From: Squalus acanthias
Taxonomy: Eukaryota
Direction of reading: 5' to 3'
Assembly (NCBI GenBank): GCA_030390025.1
Contig: CM059432.1
Coordinates: 51,152,001 to 51,216,000, forward strand
DNA: 64,000 nt
Below are positions 2,576-57,740 of this stretch, in pieces. Both the position numbers and the translations under genes were made by a program. Position 1 is the first letter of the stretch; every line of letters starts with the position of its first letter. The notes beneath the pieces were generated by a model. It did no database searches. It saw only the letters and a list, made by a program, of their open reading frames with translations, and was not told the origin of the DNA.

Positions 2576-3885
2576 GTTAGAAAGGGAAAACACAGGTATG
2601 GGAAATAGATAAAGGGCAGTGCTGGATCTGTACATATTGCCTGAGGTGTCTTTACATCTGAAGAAGTTGCCTCATCATGAAATGGTCCTCTTAATTAAGA
2701 TGATGCATTAAAATAGGCATTGACAGTAGCAGGCTTATTCTCCCACTTTTCCAGGAGACAATTGGATAACAGCAAGCAGTAGCCTTTTAATCCCCAATTC
2801 AAGTCGTGCAAAGAGCCAACATTGTATAGCTCAAAAAAGTGTGAAAAGGACTTGATGTAAACCTTAAGAAATGCTTGCAACTTAGAAATGGTTATGCAGT
2901 AATGTAACTAAAAGTTATGCACAACTACCCCAAAAATCCACATGGGAGCACATTTGGGTGTAAGGGCATCATCTCTGCCACTGACCCTTTATAGACCTGT
3001 CTGGGTCAGAGGCACCCTGACAATAGTGGGGGTCGGGAGGTTTGGCTGAAGAATGCCTTGATGGGGAGAAGGGGAAGTGCCAGGGCTCCCTCCAAAACAA
3101 CTTTATGATGTCCCCTTTGTTAGGGGCCCACATTGAAAATATTTATAAAAATTAATGAATCCTTTCCTCAGATATTCAGGCCATGATCCCAGCCTGGATT
3201 CCCAGTTGATCCTCATATGCATCATTTGGCACATAGGTAAGTCTGGTCTTACCAGACATATCTCAGTTGATGCCACACTAGGTCTCTCTGAGGCTGGAAA
3301 AATGGAAAATCCCACAATGTCCTTATGCTGATAGACTTGTTTCAGGTGTGTGGAAATTCTAACCCCACAAGGCTGTCCTGAAAACTGCAACACAAGGCTG
3401 GGACCTGGCATATCTGTATCTCAGCCAAGATTTCAGCCCTACAGGCAAATTCCTGCCAAAGTTATGGCAGAAATACGCCGGAAGGGCTGCGGATGTTTGG
3501 GCCCATCAGCTTTAAGAAGGCTTATTATAGATGTAGGTAAAGTATATCAGTATGCAATAGTTATAGTCACGAATTGTATAATGAGGGCTATAATTGGTGT
3601 AATGAATTTGACTTACCAATCTTCTGGCAGCCAGTGGGAAATTCTACTAATTGTTTCAATTGACCCAGTGAAGCATTTCATTCATCCTTAGTGAGAGAGA
3701 CAATGGGTTCATATCTGAAAGTACTACTCAAACGTGTTATAGGCCAGTGGCTTGGCAGCAGTGTGTTCAGTACCAACTTGTATTGTACCAGATAAAATGT
3801 GTGGATTGTTGACTACACCAGTGAATCTTTCATGAATATGATGAAACAGCAGTCCTTCACTCTGTGTATGCGTGAGACCAATGAG

Positions 3886-4837: not shown

Positions 4838-7222
4838 ACATAGAAGCATAGAAGATAGGAGCAGGAGTAGGCCATTCGGCCCCTCGAGCCTGCTCCGCCA
4901 TTTAATGGGATCATGGCTGATCATCCAAATTCAGTACCCTGTCCCTGCTTTCTCCCCATATCCTTTGATCCCTTTAGCCTTAAGAAATATATCTATCTCC
5001 TTCTTGAATATATTTAATGAATTGGCCTCAACTGCCTTCTGTGGTAGAGAATTCCACAGTTTCACCACTCTCTGGGTGAAGAAATTCCTCCTCATCTCAG
5101 TCCTAAATGGCTTACCCCTTATCCTTAGACTGTGACCTCTGGTTCTGGACTCCCCCGCCATCAGGAACATCCTTCCTGCATCTAGTCTGTCTAGTCCTGC
5201 TAGAATTTTATAAGTTTCAATGAGATCCCCTCTCAGTCTTCTAACTCTAGCGAATATAAGCCTAAACGACCCAATCTCTCTTCATACGTCATTCCTGCCA
5301 TCCCAGGTATCAGTCTGGTAAATCTTCGCTGCACTCCCTCCATGGCAAGAACATCCTTCCTCAGATAAGGCGACCAAAACTGCACACAATACTCAAGGTG
5401 TGGTCTCACCAAGGCCTTGTACAACTGCAGCAAGACATCCTTGCTCCAGTACTCGAATCCTCTCGCTATGAAGGCCAACATAGCCATTTGCCTTCTTAAC
5501 CACCTGCTGCACCTGCATGCTTACCTTCAGCGACTGGTGCACAAGGACTCCCAGATCTCGTTGCACTTCCCCCTTTTCCAATCTATTGCCATTCAGATAA
5601 TAATCTGTCTTCCTGTTTTTGCCACCAAAGTGGATAATCTCGCATTTATCCACATTATACTGCATCTGCCATGCATCTGCCCAATCACCCAACCTGTCCA
5701 AATCATACTGGAGTTTCTCTGCATCCTCCTCACAGCACACACGCCCACCATGCTTTGTGTCGTCTGCAAACTTAGAGATATTACATCTAGTTCCCTCGTC
5801 TAGATCATTAATATATATGGTGAATAGCTGGGGTCCTAGCACCGATCCCTGCGGTACCCCACTAGTCACTGCCTGCCACTCGGAAAAAGACCCGTTTATT
5901 CCAACTCTTTGCTTCCTGTCTGCCAACCAGTTCTCTATCCAAATCAATACCTTACCCCCAATCCCATGTGCTTTAACTTTGCATGCTAATCTCTTATGCG
6001 GGACCTTATCGAAAGCCTTCTGAAAGTCCAAATACACCACATCCACTGGTTCTCCCTTATCGATTCCACCAGTTACATCCTCAAAAAATTCCAGTAGATT
6101 AGTCAGGCATGATTTACCTTTTGTAAATCCATGTTGACTTTGTCCGATCCTGTCACTGTTTTCCAAGTGCTCTGCTATTACATCTTTTATAATGGACTCC
6201 AGCATTTTCTCCACTATCGATGTCAGGCTTACCGGTCTATAATTCCCCGTTTTTTCTTGACCACCTTTTTTAAATAGTGGGGTTACATTAGCTACCCTCC
6301 AATCCATGGGAACTGTTCCAGAGTCTATAGAATTTTGAAAGATGACCAGCAATGCATCTACTATTTCGAGGGCCACTTCCTTAAGTACCCTAGGATGTAG
6401 ATTATCAGGCCCTGGGGATTTATCGGCCTTTAATCCCATCAATTTCCCTAACACCATTTCCCTACAAATACTGATTTCATTCAATTCCTCCCTCTCTTTA
6501 GACCCGCTGCTCCCCGACATCTCTGGGAGGTTATTTGTGTCCTCCTTTGTGAAGACAGAACCAAAGTATGTATTTAATTGGTCTGCCATTTCTTTGTTCC
6601 CCATTATAAATTCCCCTGATTCTGACTGCAAGGGACCTATGCTTGACTTCACCAATCTTTTTCTCTTCACATATCTATAGAAGCTTTTACAGTCAGTATT
6701 TATATTCCATGCAAGCTTACTCTCATATTCTATTTCCCCCCTCTTAATTAATCCCTTTGTCTTCCTTTGCTGAATCCTAAACTGCTCCCAATCCTCAGGT
6801 TTGCTGTTTTTTCTGGCCAATTTATATGTGCTCTCCTTGGATCTTATGCTATCCCTAATTTCCCTTGTTACCCACGGTTGAGTCACCTTTTTTGTTTTAT
6901 TTTTATGCCAAACAGGGATGAACAAATTCTGTAGTTCATCCATGCAATCTTTAAATGTTTGCCATTGCCTATCCACCCTCAACTCTTTAAGTAATGCTCC
7001 CCAATCCATCCTAGCCAACTCGCGCCTCATACCATCATAGTTTCCTTTATTTAAATTCAAGACCCTAGTCTCTGAGTCAACTACTTCACTCTCCATCTTA
7101 ATGAAGAATTCTATCATATTATGATCGCTCCTCCCCAAGGGACCTCGCACAACAAGATTGCTAATTAATCCTTTCTCATTACATAATACCCAGTCTAAGA
7201 TAGCCTGATCTCTAGTTGGTTC
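4838..7222 (-). mobile_element. 5'-truncated CR1 LINE (family A), frameshifted near the C-terminus
   Basis: ORFs 5393..7243, 5233..5487 and 4931..5170 give the end of the endonuclease (SDH), the RT and the C-terminus. Nearly identical to 54357-56184. Confidence 0.95.
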
Positions 7223-9071: not shown

Positions 9072-10038
9072 GGCCCTGACTCAGGGCAGTGTCCTAGATC
9101 CAACCATCTTCAGCTGCTTCATCAAATACCTTCCCTCCATCATAAAGTCAGAAGTAGGGAAGTTCGCTGATGATTGCACAGTATTCAGTTCCATTTGCAA
9201 CTCCTCAGATAATGGAGCAGTCCATGCCCACATTCAGCAAGACCTGGACCACATCCAGGCTTAGGCTGATAAATGGCAAGTAACATTCGTGCCACACAAG
9301 TGCCAGACAATGACAATCTCCAACATAAGAGAGTCTAGCCACTTCCCCTTGACATTCAATGGCATTACCATCGCTAAATCCACCACCATCAACATCCTGG
9401 GGTCACCATTGACCAGAAACTTAACTGGACCAGCCACATAAATACTGTGGCTACAAGAGCAGGTCAGAGACTGGGTATTTTGCGGTGACTGTCTCACCTC
9501 CTGACTCCCCAAAGCCTTTCCACCATCTACAAGGCACAAGTCAGGAGTGTGATGGAATAGTCTCCACTTGCCTGGATCAGTGCAGCTGCAACAACACTCA
9601 AGAAGCTCGACACCATCTAGGACAAAGCAGCCCGCTTGATCGGCACCCCATCCACCACCTTACACATTCACTCCCTCCACCACCAGCGCAACATGGCTGC
9701 AGTGTGTACCATCTACAAGATGCACTGCAGCAACTCACCAAGGCTTCTTCGACAGCATCTCCCAAACTCTACCACCTAGAAGGATAAGGATAGCAGGCAC
9801 ATGGGAACAGCACCATTTCCAATTTCCCCTTCAAGGCACACACCATCCTGACTTGGAAAAATATCGCCGTTCCTTCATCGTCGCTGGGTCAAAGTCCTAG
9901 AACTCGCTACCTAACAGCACTGTGGGAGTACCTTCACCACATGGACTGCAGCGGTTCAAGAAGGCAGCTCACCACCACCTTCTCAAGGGCAATTAGGAAT
10001 GGGCAATAAATGCTGGCCTTGCCAGCGATGCTCACATT
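9072..10038 (+). mobile_element. 3' fragment of CR1-group LINE family B
   Basis: QGSVL...FADDCT; tail gggcaataaatgctggccttgccagcg followed by an A-rich end. Confidence 0.9.
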
Positions 10039-10039
10039 C

Positions 10040-10276
10040 CGTGAATGAATTAAAAAAAATGGTATCAAATTATCAGCTTAAATGCTGTCTAAATTGCCTG
10101 CATTAATGATGGTGCCGACTCTGGCGAGCAGGTTACTCGCACGCAATCAAACGTGCCTCGGTTAAACCCGGAAGTCACCGTGTTGCAGCCGGGTTGCGGT
10201 CACGCTTCATTTTTCCCTGAATTTAACTACGCATCCGACCCCAATCCACCCGTTCTTGCCTGTTAAATATTCCCCG
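10040..10276. mobile_element. Harbinger-type terminal segment
   Basis: Homologous to 47340-47562 and to the reverse complement of the 32171 terminus; probably continuous with ~8890-9070 and split by the LINE. Confidence 0.55.
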
Positions 10277-11334: not shown

Positions 11335-14126
11335 TGTTGTTTGTAGTGAGTTGGAGGCGATGTTCTTTTATAACAACAATAACATCCCAAACTCCTCCAT
11401 CACCATCCCTGGGTATGTCCTATCCCACCGGCAGGACAGACCTACCAGGGATGGCGGCACAGTGGTATACAGTCGGGAAGGAGTGGCCCTGGGCGTCCTT
11501 AACATTGACTCCGGACCCCATGAAGTCTCATGGCTTCAGGTCAAGCATGGGCAAGGAAACCTCCTGCTGATTACCATCTACTGCTCTCCCTCAGCTGATG
11601 AATCAGTACTCCTCCATGTTGAACACCACTTGGAAGAAGCACTGAGAGTAGCAAGGGCACAGAATGTACTCTAGGTGGGGACTTCAATGTTCATCACCAA
11701 GAGTGGCTCGGTAGCACCACTACTGACCGAGCTGGACGAGTCCTGAAGGATATAGCTACCAGTCTGGGCCTGCGACAGGTGGGGAGAGAACCAACACGAG
11801 GGAAAAACCTACTTGATCTCGTTCTCACCAATCTACCTGTCGCAGATGCATCTGTCCATGACAGTATTGGCAGCAGTGACCACAGCACAGTCATTGTGGA
11901 GACGAAGTCCCGTCTTCACACTGAGGACACCCTCCATCATGTTGTGTGGCACTACCACCGTACTAAATGGGATAGATTCAGAACAGAGCTAGCAGCTCAA
12001 AACTGGGCATCCATGAGGCGCTGTGGGCCATCAGCAGCAGCAGAACTGTATTCCACCACAATCTGTAACCTCATGGCCAGGCACATCCCTCACTCTGCCA
12101 TTACCATCAAGCCAGGGGACCAACCCTGGTTCAATAAGGATTGTAGAAGAGCATGCCAGGAGCAGCACCAGGCATACCTAAGAATGAGGTGCCAACCTGG
12201 GGAAGCTGCAACACAGGACTACATGCATGCTAAAAAGCAGAAGCAGCATGCTATAGACAGGGCTAAGCGATCTCACAATCAACGGATCAGATCAAAGCTC
12301 TGCAGTCCTGCCACATCCAGTCGTGAATGGTGGTGGATCATTAAACAACTAACAGGAGGAAGAGGCTCCATGAATATCCCCATCCTCAATGATGATGGAG
12401 CCCAACACGTAAGTGAAAAAGACAAGGCTGAAGCATTTGCAACCATCTTCAGCCAATAGTGCCGAGTGGATGAAACATATCGGCCTTCTCCTGAGGTCCC
12501 ACCATCACAGAAGCCAGTCTTCAGCCAATTCGATTCACTCCACGTGATATCAAGAAACGGCTGAGTGACTGGATGCAGCAAAGGCTATGGGCCCCGAAAA
12601 CATCCTGGCTGTTGTGCTGAAGACTTGTGCTCCAGAACTAGCTGTGCCTCTAGCCAAGCTGTTCCTGTACAGCTACAACACTGGCATTTATCCGACAATG
12701 TGGAAAACTGCCCAGGTATGTCCTGTTCACAAAAAGCAGGACAAATCCAATCCAGCAAATTACCGCCTCATCAGTCTACTCTCAATCATCAGCAAAGTGA
12801 TGGAAGGTGTCATCGATAGTGCTATCAAGCGGCACTTACTCAGCAATAATCTGCTCATTGATGCCCAGCTTGGGTTCCACCAAGACCACTCGGCTCCCGA
12901 CCTCATTACAACCTTTGTCCATGGACAATGGAGTTGAATTCCAGAGGTGAGGTGAGAGTGACTGCCCTTGACATCAAGGCAGCATTTGACCGAGTGTGGC
13001 ATCAAGGAGTCCTAGTAAAACTGAAGTCAATGGGAATCGGGGGGAAAACTCTCCACTGGCTGGAGTAATACCTAACACAAAAGAAGATGGTTGTGGTGGT
13101 TGGAGGTCAATTATCACAGCCCCAGGACATCGCTGCAGGAGTTCCTCAGGGCAGTGTCCTACGCCCAACCATCTTCAGCTGCTTCATCAATGACCTTTCC
13201 TCCAACATAAAGTCAGAAATGGGGATGTTCGCTGATGACTGCAAAGCGTTCAGTGCCATTCACAACTCCTCAGATAATGAAGCAGTCCATGCCCGCATGC
13301 AACAAGACCTGGACGACGTTCAGGCTTGGGCTGACAAGTGGCAGGTAACAATCGCACCACACAAGTGCCAGGCAATGACTATCTCTAACAAGCGAGAGTC
13401 TAACCACCGCCCCTTGACATTCAATGGCATTACCATCGCCGAATCCCCCATCAACATCCTGGTGGTCACCATTGACCAGAAACTTAACTGGACCAGCCAC
13501 ATAAATACTGTGGCAACAAGAGCAGGTCAGAGGCTAGGTATTCTGCGGTGAGTGTCTCACCTCCTGACTCCCCAAAGCCTTTCCACCATCTACAAGGCAC
13601 AAGTCAGGAGTGTGATGGAATACTCTCCACTTGCCTGGATGAGTGCAGCTCCAACAACACTCAAGAAGCTCGACACCATCCAGGACAAAGCAGCCCGCTT
13701 GATTGGCACCCCATCCACCACATTAAACATTCACTCCCTCCACCACCAGCGTACCGTGGCTGCAGTATGTACCATCTACAAGATGCACTGCAGCAACTCG
13801 CCAAGGCTTCTTCGGCAGCATCTCCCAAACCCCCGACCTCTTCCACCTAGAAGGACAAGGGCAGCAGGCGCTTGGGAACACCATCACCTCCAAGTTCCCC
13901 TCCAAGTCACACACCATCCTGACTTGGAAGTATATCGCCGATCCTTCATCGTCGCTGGGTCAAAATCCTGGAACTCCCTCCCTAACAGCACTGTGGGAGT
14001 ACCTTCACCACACGGACTGCAGCGGTTCAAGAAGGTGGCTCACCACCACCTTCTCAAGGGCAATTAGGAATGGGCAATAAATGCTGGCCTTGCCAGCGAC
14101 GCCCACATCCCATAAACGAATTAAAA
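11335..14126 (+). mobile_element. Near full-length ORF2 of CR1-group LINE family B (APE+RT), with stops and frameshifts
   Basis: GGTVVY, GDFN, LDLVLT, SDH (APE); NYRLISLLS, QGSVL, FADD (RT); family B tail at 14058-14126. Confidence 0.95.
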
Positions 14127-14270
14127 AGACCTTGCATTTATATATTGCGCTTTTAAAGTAGTAAATGTCGCAAGGCAGGTCACTGGAGCGTTATCAAATA
14201 ATGTTTGACACCGAGTCACATAAGGAAATATTAGGAAAGTGGTAGATTTTAAGGAGCATCTTAAAGAACA
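14127..14270 (-). mobile_element. L2 3' tail fragment
   Basis: cttgcatttatatattgcgc...tttgacaccgagtcacataagg matches 51637-51735 and 44529-44625. Confidence 0.7.
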
Positions 14271-18301: not shown

Positions 18302-18638
18302 ATTATATTTGGTCATTATCACATTGCTGTTTGTGGAAGCTTGCTGTATGCAAATTGGCTGCTTTTTTCCTACATTACAACAGTGACTAGACTTCAAAAG
18401 TACTTCATTGACTGTAAAGCGCTTTGGCACGTCCTGTGGTTGTGAAAGGCTGCTATATAAATGCAAGTCTTTCTTTAAAGCAAGCAACTGCAATTCAATT
18501 TTAGCAAACATTTTATTTTAATACATAGGAACTGAACTCATTTAGAGTGAACTTCATTTTTCATGAAATAATTTCCATAGACTGGTTCACTTACCATGTA
18601 ACTGAATGGAATTATATTCCTAAAAGACTATAAATTAT

Positions 18639-19030
18639 TGTAGTGGTTATGTTACTGGACTAGTAATCCAGAGAAGGTGAGTTCACATTCCATCAAGGCT
18701 GTTTGAGAATTTGAATTCAGTTAAAAAAAAATCTTGAAATAAAAAACTGGTATCAGTAAAAGTGACCATGAAAATGTCAGATTGTCACAAAAACCCCACT
18801 GGTTAACTAATGACTTTTAGAGAGGAAAACCAGTTGTGCTTACCCGGTCTGGTCTATATGTTACTCCAGTCCCACACCAACATAGTTGACTCTTAATTGC
18901 TCTCTAAGTGCCCTAGTAAACCATTTAGTTTTATCAAAAGAAAACCCATCACCATGTTCAAGGCAACTAAGGAGGGCCAACAAATGCCAGCCTTGCCAGC
19001 AATGCCAAATCCAAGAATTAATTTTTAAAA
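18639..19030 (+). mobile_element. tRNA(Thr)-derived SINE with a family-B LINE 3' tail
   Basis: Anticodon-like arm CTGGA-CTAGTAA-TCCAG (18655-18671), B-box-like gagttcacattcc; body matches 57340-57605(-); tail ggcaactaagg...aaatgccagccttgccagc matches 14058-14110. Confidence 0.8.
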
Positions 19031-19124
19031 ATCCAAATGCCAATTTTCATTGGTTTGTTCATGAGCAGTGTCTCACAGACTAGATAGTAGAAACTGGCAC
19101 TTCCAGTCATTAAATACTTAATGC

Positions 19125-23507: not shown

Positions 23508-26446
23508 GGCCCCAGTTTGTGATTTGTGCCAACCATTAACGCCATGACATGTTGAAAAAACGGCGGCCAGCGCTCTTCCGCCAGCTGGTGGTGGATCCCG
23601 CGGCGGGTGCCATTGTGCAAGGCCGGTAGCGCTGCTGGTAAACGGGATCGCTGGAGGGACTTAAATCAATGAGATCATGACATCAGTGAGTGTGCAACGC
23701 TCACTTGACGCCCGATCTGCAGCATTGGATTTCACTGTTTAACTTACCGGCATGCCTAAGCAACAGACAGGGAGAGCAGGTGTTCAACAGCAGGAATGAG
23801 GCTCCAGCAGCGATATTTAAAGGGAACATCAGTAATCGGATGCACCTGACATGGTTATGCAGTTTGAGTGGCTGTGTGCTACTTTCTGCAACTCCAACAG
23901 CTTTCTTTACTTCTTTCAAGGTTCTAAGGGAACAGAGAGTGTTGTTGCAATTGCAGAACTCCTTCATTTTTTTTAAAGGCTTTTTCTCACAACACTTGCT
24001 CACAGTCATGGGGGTTGCACTGACAGTCGACCTCGCCCTCCAGGATCTACCACAGGGGGAGCGGAGGCAGCGAGGAAGACAGGAACAGGCGCGCAGAGGG
24101 AGGAGGAGGAGCGCCATGAGGGCTCTCAGCAGGAGGCCTTACCCACCTAGGGTCTTCCGACAGCACTTCTCCTACCTCCAATTAAGCAAGGAGCAGTGTC
24201 TTAGGAGGCTACACTTCACCAAGAGGTGGTCACAGAACTCTGCCACCTCCTGCAACCAGACCTGCAGTTTCAGAGCAGAGTGACCACGGCTCTCCCAGTG
24301 TTAGTGAAGGTCACCGTGACCTCAGTTTCTTCACCAGCGGAACCTTCCAGTCTGTGGCAGGAGACATATCTAACATCTCAGTTCTGAACAGAGAGAAGCA
24401 GGACGAGCATATAGCTTTGCCAGGATAGCGGGCTTCCCCATGGTGCAGGGCGCCATTGACTGAAAACACGTGGCTTTGCAGGTGCTGCATAATAATCCTG
24501 AGATCTTCCATAACCGTAAAGGCTACCACTCACTTAATGTGCAGTTGGTGTGCGACCACGCACAGTGAATCCTCAATGCCCGCTATCCTGGCAGCAGCCA
24601 TGATGCCTTCATCCTGCGCCAGTCCGGTGTGCCAGCAATCTTCCAGCCACCACAGCAAACTTGAGGGTGGCTGCTCGGAGACAGGGGCTATCCACTCTCT
24701 ACCTGGGCAATGGCGGAGTGGCAGTGGTGGGAACAGGAATAATGTCATCTTGAGAGAGGAGAGCAGGTTCCTGCTCCACTGACTCACTGCCACTCCCCCG
24801 GGGCGGCACCTCAGCATTCCTAGCAATCTGCTGGAGCACAGATTGCTGGGCTGCGGCGACACTCTGCATGCCCCGGTTGACAGTGGTAAACCCAACCAAG
24901 GTGGCAGCAGTCAGAGCTTGGGTGGCTTCAAGATGAGACTGCATGAGAGCGGTCTGAGCTTCTGCTGTAGCACTAAGATGTTGGGTCGCTTCCACCTGTG
25001 TTGTAATGGAAGCTGCAACATTGCTCATCATGCGCACCATCACGTCAGGGGCACCATGGTCTCTCTGGGAGCGTACAATCATTTCCAGGCTGGAAATCCT
25101 GGACTCCATGCTCTGTGCAGAGCCGCGTGCAATGTTAGAGGCGGACTCCTCCACGCTCCTTAACATTGCCGAGAGGCTCTCTGGCAGCCTTGCCATTGCA
25201 CCCATCAATTCGGTGTGCATGCCCATCACCCTTCTTCTGAAGGCCTCCCCATCGAGGTCCTCATCTGAGTCCTGTGCAGCAGCACTCATGCGCGAACTTG
25301 CGCTCCGGGGAGCTGACCCCCAAACTACACTTTCCCCCTGGCCTTGCTGCAGCCCACTCGTGCCCGGTGCCTCACCCTGTGTAAGGTCGGAAATGGGGAT
25401 GTTCGCTGATGACTGCACAGTGTTCAGTGCCATTCACAACCCCTCAGATAATGAAGCAGTCCATGCCCGCATGCAACAAGACCTGGACGACATTCAGGCT
25501 TGGGCTGATAAGTGGCAGGTAACATTCGCGCCACAGAAGTAGAAATGCATTCATACAGCATGAGTAGCTTGAAAGTGAGAAAAGATTGTGGGCTGAGGGG
25601 GAAGTGGGATGTGAGAAGATGGATTAGGCATGAACATACCGTTGTTGTCCCCAAGGGGGTCAACATCGCTGGTTGCCACGGCGTCGATGACGTGATGCAC
25701 AATGATCTGGAGTCATCGCTCCTCCAGCTGCCTTAGTTCTTGAAAGCCCACCTGGCCCCTGCCTGTCTGTTGCTGCACGCGGTGATTATGTGCCACCTTT
25801 GCCTGCAAGAGAAAGAGAAGGTTGAGTGAGTTTAGTACAATGTGTTTGGGTGATGTGCCTGTCAGTGTGTGCAAGGTGCAAGTGTTGCAGCAGTGGTAAG
25901 GTTGTGAGGCTGAAGTGAAGCTCTGATTGGGAGGTGTGTGGCGATAGCTGGAGATTGTTGGAAGGTGAGTGCTAGGGGTGTGGTGCATTGAGCAGTCTGT
26001 GAGGCTTGTGGTGCAGATGGTGCTATGTGGCATTTGCTGAAGCCTCCACGTGAGGTCATTAAGCTTCTTCCTGTACTGGGTGGGGGTCCTGGGGACCAGA
26101 TTGCTGGCTGTGACATGATCCCCAATCTCACGCCATGTGGTTTGGGAAGTGTAGGACGAGGGCTTCTTGCCAGTTTGTGGGGGGTTGTTCCTCCTCCTCC
26201 CCTTTAAATAGTGGAAAAAGCCTGTGGCAAACATGACTGTGAATTAGACTGGCCCCGATATTGGTCCACCTGTTGAGCATTAAGCCAAACAGCATCAGTT
26301 TCAGTGCTAGAATCATGACTCCAATCATGTTAATGAAGAGTGAGCATGAATTTTGTGAGCTACCTAGACCATTTTCAGGTGGAGCAGCATAAACTTATTT
26401 GGTCTTAACACTGCCCATTTCGTGGCTATATCCAATTTTTAGCCCA
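23508..26446. mobile_element. Degenerate two-gene Harbinger element
   Basis: Transposase pseudogene + (~24008-24700); convergent Myb/SANT gene - (exons near 26130-26050, 25800-25640, 25380-24700); right terminus reads GGGCTAAAAATTGG on the minus strand. Confidence 0.8.
25381..25535 (+). mobile_element. Internal RT fragment of LINE family B inside the Harbinger Myb gene
   Basis: VRSEMGMFADDCTVFSAIHN...QAWADKWQVTFAP, near-identical to 13208-13360. Confidence 0.85.
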
Positions 26447-27029: not shown

Positions 27030-28270
27030 ACTTTTTTTTATTTGTTCATGGGATGTGGGCGCAGCTGGCAAGGCCAGCATTTATTGACCATCCCTAATTG
27101 CCCTCGAAAAGATGGTGGTGAGCTGCCTTCTTGAACTGCTGCAGTCCGTGTGGTGAAGGTACTCCCACAGTGCTGTTAGGGAGGGAGTTCCAGGATTTTG
27201 ACCCAGCGACAATGAAGGAACGGCGATATACTTCCAAGTCAGGATGGTGTGTGACTTGGAGGTGGTGGTGTTCCCATGCGCCTGCTGCCGTTGTCCTTCT
27301 AGGTGGAAGAGGTCGTGCGTTTGGAGGTGCTGCCGAAGAAGCCTTGGCGAGTTGCTGCAGTGCATCTTGTAGATGGTACACACTGCAGCCACGGTTTGCC
27401 GGTGGTGGAGAGAGTGAATGTTTAAGGTGGTGGATGTGGTGCCAATCAAGCGGGCTGCTTTGTCCTGGATGGCGTCGAGCTTCTTAAGTGTTGTTGGAGC
27501 TGCACTCATCCAGACAAGTGGAGAGTATTCCATCACACTCCTTACTTGTGTCTTGTAGATAGTGGAAAGGCTTTGGGGAGTCAGGAGGTGAGACACTCGC
27601 CGCAGAATACCTAGCCTCTGACCTGCTCTTGTTGCTACAGTATTTATGTGGCTGGTCCAGTTAAGTTTCTGGTCAATGGTGAACCCCAGGATATTGATGG
27701 TGGGGAATTCAGTGATGGTAATGCCGTTGAATGTCAAGGGGCGGTGGTTAGACTGTCACTTGTTAGAGATAGTCATTGCCTGGCACTTGTGTGGCATGAA
27801 TATTACTTGCCACTTATCAGTCCAAGCCTGAATGTTCTCTAGGTTTTGCTGCATGCGGGCATGGACTGCTTCTTTATCTGAGGAGTTGCGAATGGAACTG
27901 AATACTGTGCAATCATCAGCGAACATCCTCACTTCTGACCTTATGATGGAGGGAAGGTCATTGATGAAGCAGCTGAAGATGGTTGGGTCTAGGACACTGC
28001 CCTGAGGAAATCCTGCAGTGATGTCCCGGGGCTGAGATGATTGACCTCCAACAACCACAACCATCTTCCTTTGTGTTAGGTATGACTCCAGTCAGTGGAG
28101 AGTTTTCCCCCTGATTCCCATTTACTTCAATTCTACTAGGGCTCCTTGATGCCAGACTCAGTCAAATGCTGCCTTGATGTCAAGTGCAGTCACTCTCACC
28201 TCACCTCTGGAATTCAGCTCTTTTGTCCATGTTTGGACCAAGGTTGTAATGAGGTCTGGAGCCGAGTGCT
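27030..28270 (-). mobile_element. 5'-truncated LINE family B
   Basis: ORFs 27081..27737, 27756..28064, 28158..28400; family B tail. Confidence 0.92.
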
Positions 28271-52040: not shown

Positions 52041-52061
52041 AACACTAAAAGCAGATGGCAA

Positions 52062-52445
52062 AAGAAAGACGTGCATTTATATGGCGACTTTCACAATCTC
52101 AGGATGTCCCAAAGTGCTTTACAACCAATAAAGTACTTTTTTAAGTGTTGTCACTGTTGTAATGTAGGAAACGTGGCAGCCAATTTGCGCATAGCAAGCT
52201 CCCACAAACAGCAATGTGATAATGACCAGATAATCTGATTTTTTTTGTTATGTTGATTGAGAGATAAATATTGGCAGGACACCGGGGATAACTCCCCTGC
52301 TCTTCTTCGAAATACTGCCATGGGACCTTTTACGTCCACCTGAGAGCGCAGACAGGGCCTCGGTTTAACGTCTCATCTGAAAGACTGCCCCTCTGGCAAT
52401 GCAGTACTCCCTCAGTACTGCACTGGAGTGTCAGCTGAGATTTTT
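52062..52445 (-). mobile_element. DeuSINE copy
   Basis: Reverse complement of the core and tail of 16364-18476. Confidence 0.88.
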
Positions 52446-52713
52446 GTGGGAACCTTGGTGGCCAGTTAAAATAGCCATGGTTAGCTGCTGGAAAGATCTC
52501 AGGAACTCGCCATTTGGAATTTTAAACTGTTCTACTGAGCAGGTAACGAGAACATCCACTGAAAAAAGTGGGATCCTTCTTTACATATGCAATGCAGTAC
52601 GCCCTCAGTATTGCACTGCAGTGTCAGCCTAGATTTTTGTGCTCAAGTCTCTAGAATGGAATCTGGTCATGCTGTTTGTGGGATCATGCTGTGTGCAAAT
52701 TGACTGCCGCATT

Positions 52714-55700
52714 TTTAATTTTTTTTAAATTCGTTTATGGGATGTGGGCGTCGCTGGCAAGGCCAGCATTTATTGCCCATCCCTAGTTGCCCTTGAGAAG
52801 GTGGTGGTGAGCCGCCTTCTTGAACCGCTGCAGTCCGTCTGGTGAAGGTACTCCCACAGTGCTGTAGGGAGGGAGTTCCAGGATTTTGACCCAGCGATGA
52901 TGAAGGATCGGCGATGTACTTCTAAGTCAGGATGGTGTGTAACTTGGAGGGGAAATTGGAGGTGGTGGTGTTCCCATGCGCCTGCTGCCCTTGTCCTTCT
53001 AGGTGATAGAGGTCGCGGGTTTGGGAGGTGCTGCCGAAGAAGCCTTGGCGAGTTGCTGCAGTGCATCTTGTAGATGGTACACACTGCAGCCACGGTACGC
53101 CGATGGTGGAGGGAGTGAATGTTTAAGGTGGTGGATGGGGTACCAATCAAGCGGGCTGCTTTGTCCTGGATGGTGTCGAGCTTCTTGAGTGTTGTTGGAG
53201 CTGCACTCATCCAGGCTAGTGGAGAGTATTCCATCACACTCCTGACTTGTGTCTTGTAGATGGTGGAAAGGCTTTGGGGAGTCAGGAGGTGAGACACTCA
53301 CCGCAGAATACCTAGCCTCTGATCTGCTCTTGTTGCCACAGTATTTATGTGGCTGGTCCAGTTAAGTTTCTGGTCAATGGTGACCCCCAGGATGTTGATG
53401 GTGGGGAATTCGGAGATGGTAATCCCGTTGAATGTCAAGGGGAGGTGGTTAGACTGTCACTTGTTAGAGATAGTCATTGCCTGGGACTGCTGTGGCGCGA
53501 ATGTTACCTGCCACTTATCAGCCTAAGCCTGAACGTCGTGCAGGTCTTGTTGCATGCGGGCATGGACTGCTTCATTATCTGAGGAGTTGTGAATGGCGCT
53601 GAACACTGTGCAGTCATCAGCGAATATCCCTATTTCTGATCTTATGTTGGAGGGAAGGTCATTGATGAAGCAGCTGAAGATGGTTGGGCCTAGGACACTG
53701 CTCTGAGGAACTCCTGCAGCGATGTCCTGGGGCTGTGATGATTGACCTTCAACCACCACAGCCATCTTCCTTTGTGCTAGTTATGACTCCAGCCAGTGTA
53801 GCGTTTTCCTCTCGATTCCCATTGATTTCAGTTTTACTAGGGCTCCTTGATGCCACACTCGGTCAAATGCTGCCTTGATATCCAGGGCAGTTACTCTCAC
53901 CTCAGCTCTGGAATTCAGCTCCTTTGTCCATGTTTGGACCAAGGCTGTAATGAGGTCAGGAGCCAAGTGGTCTTCGCTGAACCCAAACTGGGCAGCCGTG
54001 AGCAGGTTATTGGTGAGTAAGTGCCGCTAGATAACACTGTCGATGACACCTTCCATCACTTTGCTGATGATTGAGAGTAGACTGATGGGGCGGTAATTGG
54101 CCGGGTTGGATTTGTCCTGCTTTTTGTGGACAGGACATACCTGGGCAGTTTTCCACATTGTTGGATAGATGCCAGTGTTGTATCTGTACTGGAACAGCTT
54201 GGCTAGAGGCGTGGCTAGTTTTGGAGCACAAGTCTTCAGCATGATAGCAGGATGTTGTCGGGGCCCATAGCCGTTGCTGAATCCAGTGCGCTGAGCCGTT
54301 TCTTGATATCACGTGGAGTGAGTCGAATTGGCTGAAGACTGGCTTCTGTGATGGTGATAGATTCTATAGATATGTGAAGAGAAAAAGATTGGTGAAGTCA
54401 AGCATAGGTCCCTTGCAGTCAGAATCAGGGGAATTTATAATGGGGAACAAAGAAATGGCAGACCAATTAAATACATACTTTGGTTCTGTCTTCACAAAGG
54501 AGGACACAAATAACCTCCCAGAGATGTCAGGGAACATAGGGTCTAATGAGAGGGAGGAACTGAATGAAATCAGTATTTGTAGGGAAATGGTGTTAGGGAA
54601 ATTGACGGGATTGAAGGCCGATAAATCCCCAGGGCCTGATAATCTACATCCTAGGATACTTAAGGAAGTGGCCCTAGAAATAGTAGATGCATTGCTGGTC
54701 ATCTTCCAAAATTCTATAGACTCTGGAACAGTTCCCATGGATTGGAGGGTAGCTAATGTAACCCCACTATTTAAAAAAGGAGGTAGAGAGAAAACAAGGA
54801 ATTATAGACCGGTAAGCCTGACATCGGTAGTGGGGAAAATGCTAGAGTCCATTATAAAAGATGTAATAGCAGAGCACTTGGAAAACAGTGACAGGATCGG
54901 ACAAAGTCAACATGGATTTACAAAAGGTAAATCATGCTTGACTAATCTACTGGAATTTTTTGAGGATGTAACTGGTAGAATAGATAAGGGAGAACCAGTG
55001 GATGTGGTGTATTTGGACTTTCAGAAGGCTTTCGATAAGGTCCCGCATAAGAGATTGACGTGCAAAGTTAAAGCACATGGGATTGGGGGTAAGGTACTGA
55101 CTTGGATAGAGAACTGGTTGGCAGACAGGAAGCAAAGAGTTGGAATAAACGGGTCTTTTTCCGAGTGGCAGGCAGTGACTAGTGGGGTACCGCAGGGATC
55201 GGTGCTAGGACCCCAGTTATTCACAATATATATTAATGATCTAGACGAGGGAACTAGATGTAATATCTCCAAGTTTGCAGACAACACAAAGCTGGGTGGG
55301 CGTGTGTGTTGTGAGGAGGATGCAGAGAAACTCCAGTATGATTTGGACAAGTTGGGTGATTGGGCAGAAGCATGGCAGATGCAGTATAATGTGGATAAAT
55401 ACGAGTTATCCACTTTGGTGGCAAAAACAGGAAGGCAGATTATTATCTGAACGGCAATAGTATGGGAAAAGGGGACGTGCAACGAGACCTGGGTGTCCTT
55501 ATGCACCAGTCGCTGAAGGTAAGCATGCAGGTGCAGCAGGCGGTTAAGAAGGCAAATGGTATGTTGGCCTTCATAGCGAGAGGATTTGAGTACAGGAGCA
55601 AGGATGTCTTGCTGCAGTTGTACAGGGTCTTGGTGAGACCACACCTTGAGTATTGTGTGCAGTTTTGGTCGCCTTATCTGAGGAAGGATGTTCTTGCCAT

Positions 55701-57607
55701 GGAGGGAGTGCAGCGAAGATTTACCAGACTGATACCTGGGATGGCAGGAATGACGTATGAAGAGAGATTGGGACGATTGGGCTTGTATTTGCTAGAGTTT
55801 AGAAGAATGAGAGGGGATCTCATTGAAACTTATAAAATTCTAACAGGACTAGACACAGGAAGGATGTTCCCGATGGCGGGGGAGTCCAGAACCAGGGGTC
55901 ACAGTCTAAGGATAAGGGGTAAGCCATTTAGGACTGAGATGAGGAGGAATTTCTTCACCCAGAGAGTGGTGAACCTGTGGAATTCTCTACCACAGAAGGC
56001 AATTGAGGCCAATTCCTTAAATATATTCAAGAAGGAGATAGATATATTTCTTAAGGCTAAAGGGATATGGGGAGAAAGCAGGGACAGGGTACTGAATTTG
56101 GATGATGAGCCATGATCTCATTAAATGGCGGAGCAGGCTCGAGGGGCCGAATGGCCTACTCCTGGTCCTATCTTCTATGTTTCTATGGTGGTGACTTCAG
56201 GAGTAGGCCAATATGGATCATCCACTCTGCACTTCTGGCTGAAGATGGTTGCAAACGCTTCAGCCTTGTCTTTTAGACTCATGTGCTGGGCTCCACCATC
56301 ATTGAGGATGGGGATATTCATGGAGCCTCCTCCTCCCGTTAGTTGTTTAATGGTCCACCACCATTCACAACTGGATGTGGCAGGACTGCAGAGCTTTGAT
56401 CTGATCCGTTGATTGTGGGATCACTTAGCTCTGTCTATAGCATGCTGCTTCTGCTTTTTAGCATGCATGCAGTCCTGTATTGCAGCTCTCCACCTCATTT
56501 TTAGGTACTCCTGATACTGCTCCTGGCATGCTCTTCTACACTTGTTGTTGAACCAGGGTTGGTCCCCTGGCTTGGTGGTAATGGTAGTGTGAGGGATATG
56601 CCAGGCCATGAGGTTACAGATTGAGGTGGAATACAATTCTGCTGCTGCTGCCCCAGAGCACCTCATGGATGCCCAGTTTTGAGCTACTAGATCTGTTCTG
56701 AATCTATCCCATTTAGCACGGTGGTAGTGCCACACAACACGATTGAGGGTGTTCTCAGTGTGAAGACGGGACTTCATCTCCACAATGACTGTGGGGTGGT
56801 CACTGCTGCCATGGACAGATGCATCTGCGACAGGTAGATTGATGAGGACTAGGTTTTGCCCTAGTGTTGGTTCTCTCACCACCTGTCGCAGGCCCAGATT
56901 GGCAGTTAAGTCCTTCAGGACTCGGCCAGTCGTGGTGCTACCGAGGCACTCTTGGTTCATTGAAGTCCCCCACCCAGAGTATATTCTGTGCCCTTACTAC
57001 TCTCAGTGCTTCTTTCAAGTGGTGTTCAACATGGAGGAGTACTGATTCATCAGCAGGTGATAATCAGCAGGCGGTTTCCTTGCCCATGCTCAACTTCATC
57101 AGGTCCGGAGTCAATGTTGAGGACTCCCAGGGCCACTCCTTCCCGACTATATACCACTGTGCCACCACCCTTTGGTGATTGTGATGGAAGAGTTCGGGAC
57201 ATTGGCTGAAAGGTATGTGAGTATGAGTATGACAACTCTCCCAATTTTGGCACAAGTCCCCAGATGTTGGTGAGGAGGACTTTGCAGGGCTGGGTTTGCC
57301 GTGTCCGTGTCTGCAGCTGTCCGTCCGATTTCATTCTTTTTCATAGCAGTTTCTAGGCTAGACATTGCTGTGGGTCTGGAATCACACATAGGCCAGGCCG
57401 GACAGCAGATTTCCTTCCCTAAAGGACAGTTAGTGAACCAGATGGGCTTTTACGACAATCAGATAGTTTCATGGTTACCATTACTGTTACCAGTAATTAT
57501 TCCAGATTTATTTAATTAACTGAATTTAAATTCCCCAGTTGCCGTAGGATTTGAATTCACGTCTCTGGATTAATAGCCCAGTGACATTACCACTACGCTA
57601 CCGTTCC
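52714..57607 (-). mobile_element. Apparently full-length LINE family B with tRNA-derived 5' head, split by a CR1 family A insertion
   Basis: Head 57607-57340, APE start VLLTNIWGL at ~57280, APE to ~56190, RT 54350-52770, tail to ~52714; degraded by frameshifts. Confidence 0.85.
54357..56184 (+). mobile_element. 5'-truncated CR1 family A inserted into LINE B
   Basis: ORFs 54374..55450 and 55462..56115; tail ttctatgtttctatg; probable TSD ATGGTG (54351-56, 56185-90). Confidence 0.93.
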
Positions 57608-57740
57608 CTTACATTACATTCTTACTTTACAACAGTGACTATACTTCAAAAGTACTTCATTAGTTGTAAAACATGTTGGGACAGCCTGAGGTCATGAAAG
57701 GTGCTATATAAATGCAAGCCTTTCTTTCTTTCTTTTTTTC
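57608..57740 (+). mobile_element. DeuSINE 3' tail, continuation of 52660-52713
   Basis: tacattaca...acaacagtgactatacttcaaaagtacttc...gctatataaatgcaagcc(tttc)n. Confidence 0.8.

Follow-up and report, generated by a model that had tools for sequence, protein, structure and literature searches.

Is a coding retroelement that begins with a tRNA-derived head transcribed by RNA polymerase II (Pol II) or RNA polymerase III (Pol III)? This question is raised by an element on the minus strand of a 64,000-nt stretch of the Squalus acanthias genome (GenBank assembly GCA_030390025.1, contig CM059432.1, positions 51,152,001 to 51,216,000; hereafter the window). Current papers state as a rule that coding long interspersed elements (LINEs) are made by Pol II and non-coding short interspersed elements (SINEs) by Pol III. 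In the window, as an initial annotation had noted, an A box and a B-box-like motif run within about 320 nt into the endonuclease (APE) of a LINE, which opens with the residues VLLTN. The locus is to be read as a decayed, dead copy of an abundant 3.3-kb elasmobranch Zenon with one open reading frame (ORF) for APE and reverse transcriptase (RT). Judged from its sequence signs, the coding RNA of elasmobranch Zenon is probably transcribed by Pol III from the tRNA-derived head.

The head as the 5' end of elasmobranch Zenon

A search with the head-APE junction gave 7598 candidates, of which 40 were scored and 30 loci kept, 29 besides the window. The head runs into APE in 25 of these 29 loci and extends to the tail in four. 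Among 20 longer stretches, 14 hold head-to-tail copies (2992-3612 nt), two are internally deleted and four have no tail within reach. Sixteen of the stretches (L041, L048, L049 and L050 were omitted) were aligned with the window copy. The majority sequence of these 17 copies is 3.29 kb long and carries a single stop-free frame of 970 codons, to which about 310 nt lead from +1 in the aligned copies, with no ORF1. The copies are 92-97% identical to the majority, with a median non-CpG divergence of 3.2%.

Avoiding a bias towards the head, a second search used APE DNA only. Its 30 loci, one of them the query, extend to +1 to +5 in 18 cases and to the A box in one; 11 are cut at scattered positions (30-405), and neither a second shared 5' end nor an alternative 5' untranslated region (UTR) was found among the 30. 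Two loci cut at 242-243 have a common upstream repeat, which is regarded as a host repeat because the junction points differ and the same repeat flanks one full-length copy. In 50 distinct heads agreement begins at +1 and the upstream flanks are random. The head therefore is the family's own 5' end, as had been supposed, and chance nesting at this locus is rejected on the repeated junction together with the common 5' end of the APE-selected loci. None of the 30 APE-selected loci showed a longer, conventional form that carries ORF1 and a separate 5'UTR.

Non-CpG variants in 78 loci were synonymous in 22 of 49 cases when present in at least four copies, whereas the singletons included 336 synonymous ones among 1233 (p 0.009, Fisher test). 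Since the shared variants are richer in synonymous changes, the source elements kept the frame under selection, and the 970-codon APE-RT frame agrees with the autonomous type of element that had been proposed. The expectation of many copies with the same junction and an intact single ORF holds for the junction; among the sequences obtained here the intact ORF is present only in the majority. No fetched locus contains an intact copy, the longest natural stop-free stretch being 489 aa (loci of 3.3-5.5 kb). Intact ORF2 copies have been reported for a ray (3 of 612) and the whale shark (1 of 1419) by Stuart et al. 2026 (PMC13343379). In Table 3 of that supplement the corresponding cell for SquAca_Zenon-1 reads 675852, apparently a spreadsheet conversion error.

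The same publication describes Zenon in elasmobranchs, coelacanth and hagfish as elements with a poly-A tail and without ORF1, and states that the elasmobranch forms are absent from repeat repositories. By eye, the first 400 nt of its SquAca_Zenon-1 consensus match the long-form head and 5' region of our family near letter for letter. The nearest full proteins, about 960 aa long, have APE and RT in a single ORF, are 37-45% identical and are either unnamed or from invertebrates (amphioxus, crab, moth). Protein fragments 63-82% identical are found in Rhincodon, Heptranchias and Heterodontus. The 48 distinct 3' ends carry poly-A, mostly A7-11. With APE and RT in one frame, no ORF1, a poly-A tail and the 5' match, the family has the features of Zenon; it shows neither the esterase ORF1 lineage nor the tail without poly-A of canonical vertebrate CR1. 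Opening with a tRNA-derived head that bears A and B boxes is a feature of SINE2 elements, which are short (100-700 bp) and non-coding, while this element measures 3.3 kb and has a selected frame. The missing ORF1 had been noted correctly but taken as unusual; it is a defining feature of published Zenon, and together with the poly-A tail an ordinary, already published trait.

The head is a different matter. Five elasmobranch Zenon-1 consensuses (four sharks and one ray; 3244-3314 characters) have been published, and by eye all five carry the A box at the exact element start. The B box follows in the canonical form GGTTCGAATCC in three and in a variant form in two, and the stretch between the boxes varies while the boxes persist. 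T4 is absent from the first 400 nt of all five. The head is missing from the coelacanth consensus and from two of hagfish, all of which contain T-runs in their first 400 nt (by eye). SquAca_Zenon-1 and its kin share with our family the 5' sequence, the length of 3.3 kb, the one APE-RT frame, the lack of ORF1 and the poly-A tail, and do not differ from it in sequence, as judged by eye over the first 400 nt. The available text of the paper makes no mention of a tRNA head, A and B boxes, T-run depletion, a terminator-like end or a missing AUG; the term 'tRNA' does not occur in its main text and supplement as available, nor 'Pol III' in the supplement. A literature search that did not extend to Repbase, Dfam or the Stuart et al. 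preprint on bioRxiv found no prior description of the head. The tRNA-derived head is thus an elasmobranch gain within Zenon that is apparently undescribed.

Concerning its origin, the head was compared with tRNAs of five isotypes taken from the S. acanthias genome itself. For the window head, a copy of tRNA-Gln(TTG) gives an ungapped alignment with 40 of 55 positions identical and a score of 57.5, which none of 500 dinucleotide shuffles reached (maximum 38). Scores of 55-57, with gaps, were obtained for tRNA-Leu(AAG) against two other heads of the family; tRNAs for Met, Lys and Cys scored 29-43. On this comparison the head is tRNA-derived, and both Gln and Leu fit. Leu as the certain source is weakened, because Gln fits without gaps among the five isotypes compared. 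ARAGORN and Rfam made no tRNA call on the head. In its long form the anticodon-like arm is doubled; many copies, including that in the window, have a single arm. Long tandem arrays of tRNA genes were observed at two places elsewhere in the genome, one of tRNA-Leu(AAG) and tRNA-Met(CAT) with a period of about 1.99 kb (G000:C1:100.83-101.09 Mb, L191-L202), the other of Gln-motif repeats with a period of about 1.19 kb (C21:3.34-3.48 Mb).

Sequence signs bearing on Pol III

Besides the conserved boxes, the sense strand is poor in T-runs. The check for TTTT terminators that had been suggested for the consensus was negative: T4 runs number 0, where base shuffles predict 3.85 (P 0.018). T3 runs in the frame number 5, with 11.2 predicted from codon shuffles (P 0.006); dinucleotide shuffles predict 10.6 T3 where 7 are observed (P 0.11). 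The deficit is largest for 5-mers with at least four T, of which there is 1 where dinucleotide shuffles expect 9.8 (P 0.002). Two CR1 copies in the window show no such deficit (26 observed to 28.3 expected, and 30 to 28.2), and A-runs on the Zenon sense strand are at the expected level. Twelve variants create T4, each in only one or two copies. The ratio of observed to expected T3 is 0.31 in the Zenon majority and 0.70-1.58 in 80 relatives from metagenomes, all of which carry T4 runs at no less than 1.1 per kb. These relatives are distant, many of their contigs have no 5' end, and the DNA of the closest proteins is not among them. A Pol III habit of the whole clade was rejected, as regular expressions found an A/B-box pair upstream in 0 of the 80, all with T4 runs; relaxed ARAGORN on the same relatives gave noise only.

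The 3' end shows the order AATAAA, stem-loop, GAA, T-run and A-tail. In the 46 of 48 ends that could be parsed, the terminal run is T1 in 19, T2 in 17, T3 in 8, T4 in 1 and T6 in 1. Seven TTT lie within the element, one of them in the same GAATTTAAA context, and these keep the length of three in 83-100% of the parsed copies. T+ SINEs end in AATAAA, a terminator rudiment of T1-3 and an A-tail (PMC8466645). Such ends arise when Pol III halts within the terminator and a poly-A tail is added to the RNA afterwards (PMC8466645). The AATAAA and T1-3 of this type are present in Zenon; at least T4 was seen in only 2 of the 46 parsed ends.

Several observations weigh against transcription by Pol III. 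The lack of T4 is not significant by codon shuffle (1.83 expected, P 0.12) or dinucleotide shuffle (1.5, P 0.2), and the sense strand is T-poor overall (0.196), for which other causes are possible. As T-runs are reported to grow in old copies (PMC8466645), slippage is a live alternative for the terminal runs; these adjoin the A-tail, a site of higher slippage, and the tail query contained T2, which may have biased their tally. AATAAA stands about 42 nt ahead of the A-tail, and poly-A tails are general among Zenons, which elsewhere have no Pol III heads in the published descriptions. RNAs made by Pol III are regarded as short (SINEs 100-700 bp) and uncapped. The B boxes of the window copy (GAGTTCAAATCC) and of the ray are not fully canonical. 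Rfam matched no internal ribosome entry site (IRES), ribozyme or tRNA family in the 5' body, which folds no better than shuffles (single-strand fold z 0.77 and 0.29).

Translation, life cycle and rival explanations

The first in-frame Met is codon 284, past APE. Without an in-frame AUG ahead of the endonuclease, translation must be non-canonical. Just upstream the frame ends at an in-frame TAA in almost every copy, and the codon next to this stop is variable; a UUG start is unlikely, because an in-frame TAA comes after it in nearly all copies. An out-of-frame AUG lies about 85 nt ahead of VLLTN in all five published Zenon-1 consensuses (by eye). Counted from the first conserved Ala codon to this site, the spacing is divisible by three in 40 of 41 parsed copies and in four of the five consensuses (by eye), and the N-terminal stretch is rich in Arg and Lys, resembling the N-termini of relatives. 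Both speak for an in-frame non-AUG start. Against it stand a common 7-nt deletion at the site in 4 of 13 unparsed copies, the published SquAca-1 line, which is one base short there, and the whale shark gene model P0147, which fuses the AUG frame straight to VLLTN, as fits a -1 shift or a copy-specific indel. Variants common to several copies in the stretch before APE are undecisive, since they are mostly CpG decay. The conserved non-coding 5' body is a candidate translation-initiation element, and for non-LTR elements a start like that of an IGR-IRES has been suggested as possible (PMC3894237).

From these observations a life cycle can be proposed. TFIIIC would bind the internal A and B boxes, and Pol III would initiate at +1, read through 3.3 kb because terminators have been purged, and stop in a T-run at or past the 3' end, after which the RNA would be polyadenylated as in T+ SINEs. 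The uncapped RNA would be translated either from a non-AUG start close to the frame's first codons or by a -1 shift from the conserved out-of-frame AUG. The Zenon protein would recognise the 3' stem-loop and copy its own RNA by target-primed reverse transcription. As the promoter lies within the element, every full-length copy would retain it. On the widest reading, elasmobranch Zenon would be a self-encoding SINE: autonomous, with a Pol III-made, terminator-free and polyadenylated RNA of 3.3 kb, translated without cap and AUG via the 5' body, in an arrangement that predates the split of sharks and rays and is the parent of short head-plus-tail SINEs by internal deletion. Taken with all its parts, we put this reading forward tentatively, as possible rather than probable.

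Transcription by Pol III from the head, the probable explanation, has to be weighed against three rivals. The head may derive from a tRNA or SINE and yet serve now as an internal Pol II promoter or 5'UTR of an ordinary Zenon, its T-poverty being compositional. The general rule for LINEs, the poly-A-tailed Zenons described without a Pol III promoter and the insignificance of the T4 lack alone under codon or dinucleotide shuffles speak for Pol II. We consider it unlikely, since the A and B boxes persist across sharks and ray though the spacer changes, the T-run depletion is seen neither in the 80 relatives nor in the local CR1, the ends vary as T1-3, and a capped RNA would meet several upstream AUGs on scanning, none of them in frame. 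A division of labour between two RNAs, in which the 3.3-kb Pol III RNA is the copied template and capped Pol II read-through from copies lying in host genes supplies the protein, would account for all Pol III signs without the translation of an uncapped RNA. A whale shark preprint, which names CR1-Zenon, places 39% of the copies in introns. Protein supplied in trans would however favour deleted forms, yet the frame is selected and full length is kept in five species; moreover, read-through RNA still requires a non-AUG or shifted start, and this explanation appears decidedly unlikely.

Very improbable, and already largely refuted, is the view that head and LINE came together by chance nesting, or that the element is a non-autonomous SINE-LINE chimera mobilised by an ordinary LINE that has ORF1 and a 5'UTR to itself. 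The existence of short head-plus-tail elements and the lack of an intact copy among the fetched loci would suit this view. Opposed to it are the recurrent junction, the single 5' end of the APE-selected loci, the same structure in five species and the reported intact ORF2 copies of ray and whale shark.

If the self-encoding SINE is real, a natural, translated and self-copying Pol III RNA of 3.3 kb would break the polymerase split between LINEs and SINEs, in a family abundant in shark and ray genomes. It would provide a direct route from LINE to SINE by deletion and, outside mammals, a natural model of how Pol III RNA is polyadenylated and translated without a cap. If Pol II makes the element, the remaining novelty is the unreported capture of a tRNA or SINE promoter in one Zenon lineage.

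Known systems share parts of this arrangement. The Zenon of Lepidoptera and Persaeus, its partner with internal deletions (PMC6740152), have a single ORF, a poly-A tail and short derivatives made of 5' and 3' parts, but are stated to be without tRNA homology and Pol III promoter. B2, Dip and Ves, which are T+ SINEs (PMC8466645), resemble shark Zenon in the tRNA-derived head, AATAAA and the rudiment-like T1-3 before the A-tail, but are short, non-coding, mammalian and L1-dependent, whereas shark Zenon encodes APE-RT in 3.3 kb. In SINEs with a LINE-derived middle (RTE or Vingi 5' and 3' parts; PMC5786205) a tRNA head is joined to LINE 5' and 3' sequence; there the head sits on a deleted, non-coding LINE ('SINEs cannot encode a protein'), in shark Zenon on a coding element. 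The TRIMp3 elements Cassandra, Helenus and Ajax (PMC10886601) have a Pol III promoter derived from a small RNA outside the classic SINEs; they are non-autonomous LTR elements of 311-1263 bp, and their autonomous partners are assumed to be Pol II-dependent.

Short forms occur in our family as well. Four loci fuse the 5' region to the tail, with 86-95% identity, and are regarded as sporadic deletions because they do so at four different points. The short forms would thus look like deletions of the coding element, the reverse of the usual addition of a head to a deleted LINE. An older head-plus-tail element in the window at 18640-19031 (+), 79% (head) and 74% (tail) identical and with internal T4 runs, may be a separate SINE family from an earlier Zenon. 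The shark SINE paper PMC5499810 describes CmiSINE and SacSINE1, with L2 tails. Copies L031-L080 show many deletions between short direct repeats (the duplicated head arm, hexamer repeats before APE), some at recurrent sites, possibly a repair or reverse-transcription habit of the S. acanthias genome. At one locus two heads (L010:952 and 1501, minus) with an identical 13-nt upstream flank suggest a local duplication.

Structure of the locus

The features of the locus are collected in the table below. As had been claimed, head, ORF and tail were inserted as one unit: the two halves of the host SINE, which we take to be SacSINE1-like, are contiguous when compared with two uninterrupted copies in the window (52061-52213 and 18325-18476). 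At the 5' side of this junction about 12 extra bases are present, and there is no clean target-site duplication. The nested CR1 lies opposite to Zenon and is a later insertion, because a 6-bp duplication marks its junctions.

Features of the Zenon locus and its surroundings (positions in the window)
Feature	Position	Strand	Basis or remark
Zenon element +1	57608	-	sequence
tRNA-derived head	57535..57608	-	ungapped tRNA-Gln(TTG) match; +1 common to 50 heads with unrelated flanks
A box	57590..57600	-	sequence; same motif at start of five published elasmobranch Zenon consensuses (by eye)
anticodon-like arm	57565-57581	-	sequence
B box, one base decayed in window copy	57547..57558	-	three of five published consensuses have canonical GGTTCGAATCC
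conserved non-coding 5' body, two deletions in window copy	57348..57534	-	near-identical in shark and ray consensuses (by eye)
5' part of single ORF: basic N-terminal stretch, APE, linker	56188..57347	-	APE via alignment to PF14529/PF03372-bearing relatives
VLLTN codons (APE start)	from 57280	-	320 nt past A box
nested 5'-truncated CR1, not part of Zenon element	54359..56187	+	RVT_1 E 5.7e-30; junctions
3' part of single ORF: reverse transcriptase and C-terminus	52783..54358	-	RVT_1 matches on two fragments
ORF stop	~52785-52783	-	sequence
3' end of element	52714..52782	-	AATAAA (52774-52769), stem-loop, T3 (52729-52727), A-tail (~52714-52726)
host SINE tail, upstream half	57609..57727	-	continuous with downstream half in comparison with intact copies
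host SINE tail, downstream half	52670..52713	-	contiguous with upstream half against intact copies

The decay of the window copy is visible in stops and frameshifts in both the 5' and the 3' part of its ORF. Its B box lacks one G of the family majority, and it has 5' deletions; the majority has about 420 nt between +1 and the APE start. The window contains four further 5'-truncated Zenon copies, 90-97% identical to the majority, at 11385-14127 (+), 27032-28268 (-), 9080-10059 (+) and 25382-25540 (+). The nested CR1 is 95% identical to a copy at 4839-6685 and truncated at a nearly equal 5' point; a third CR1, at 504-2203, is 70% identical.

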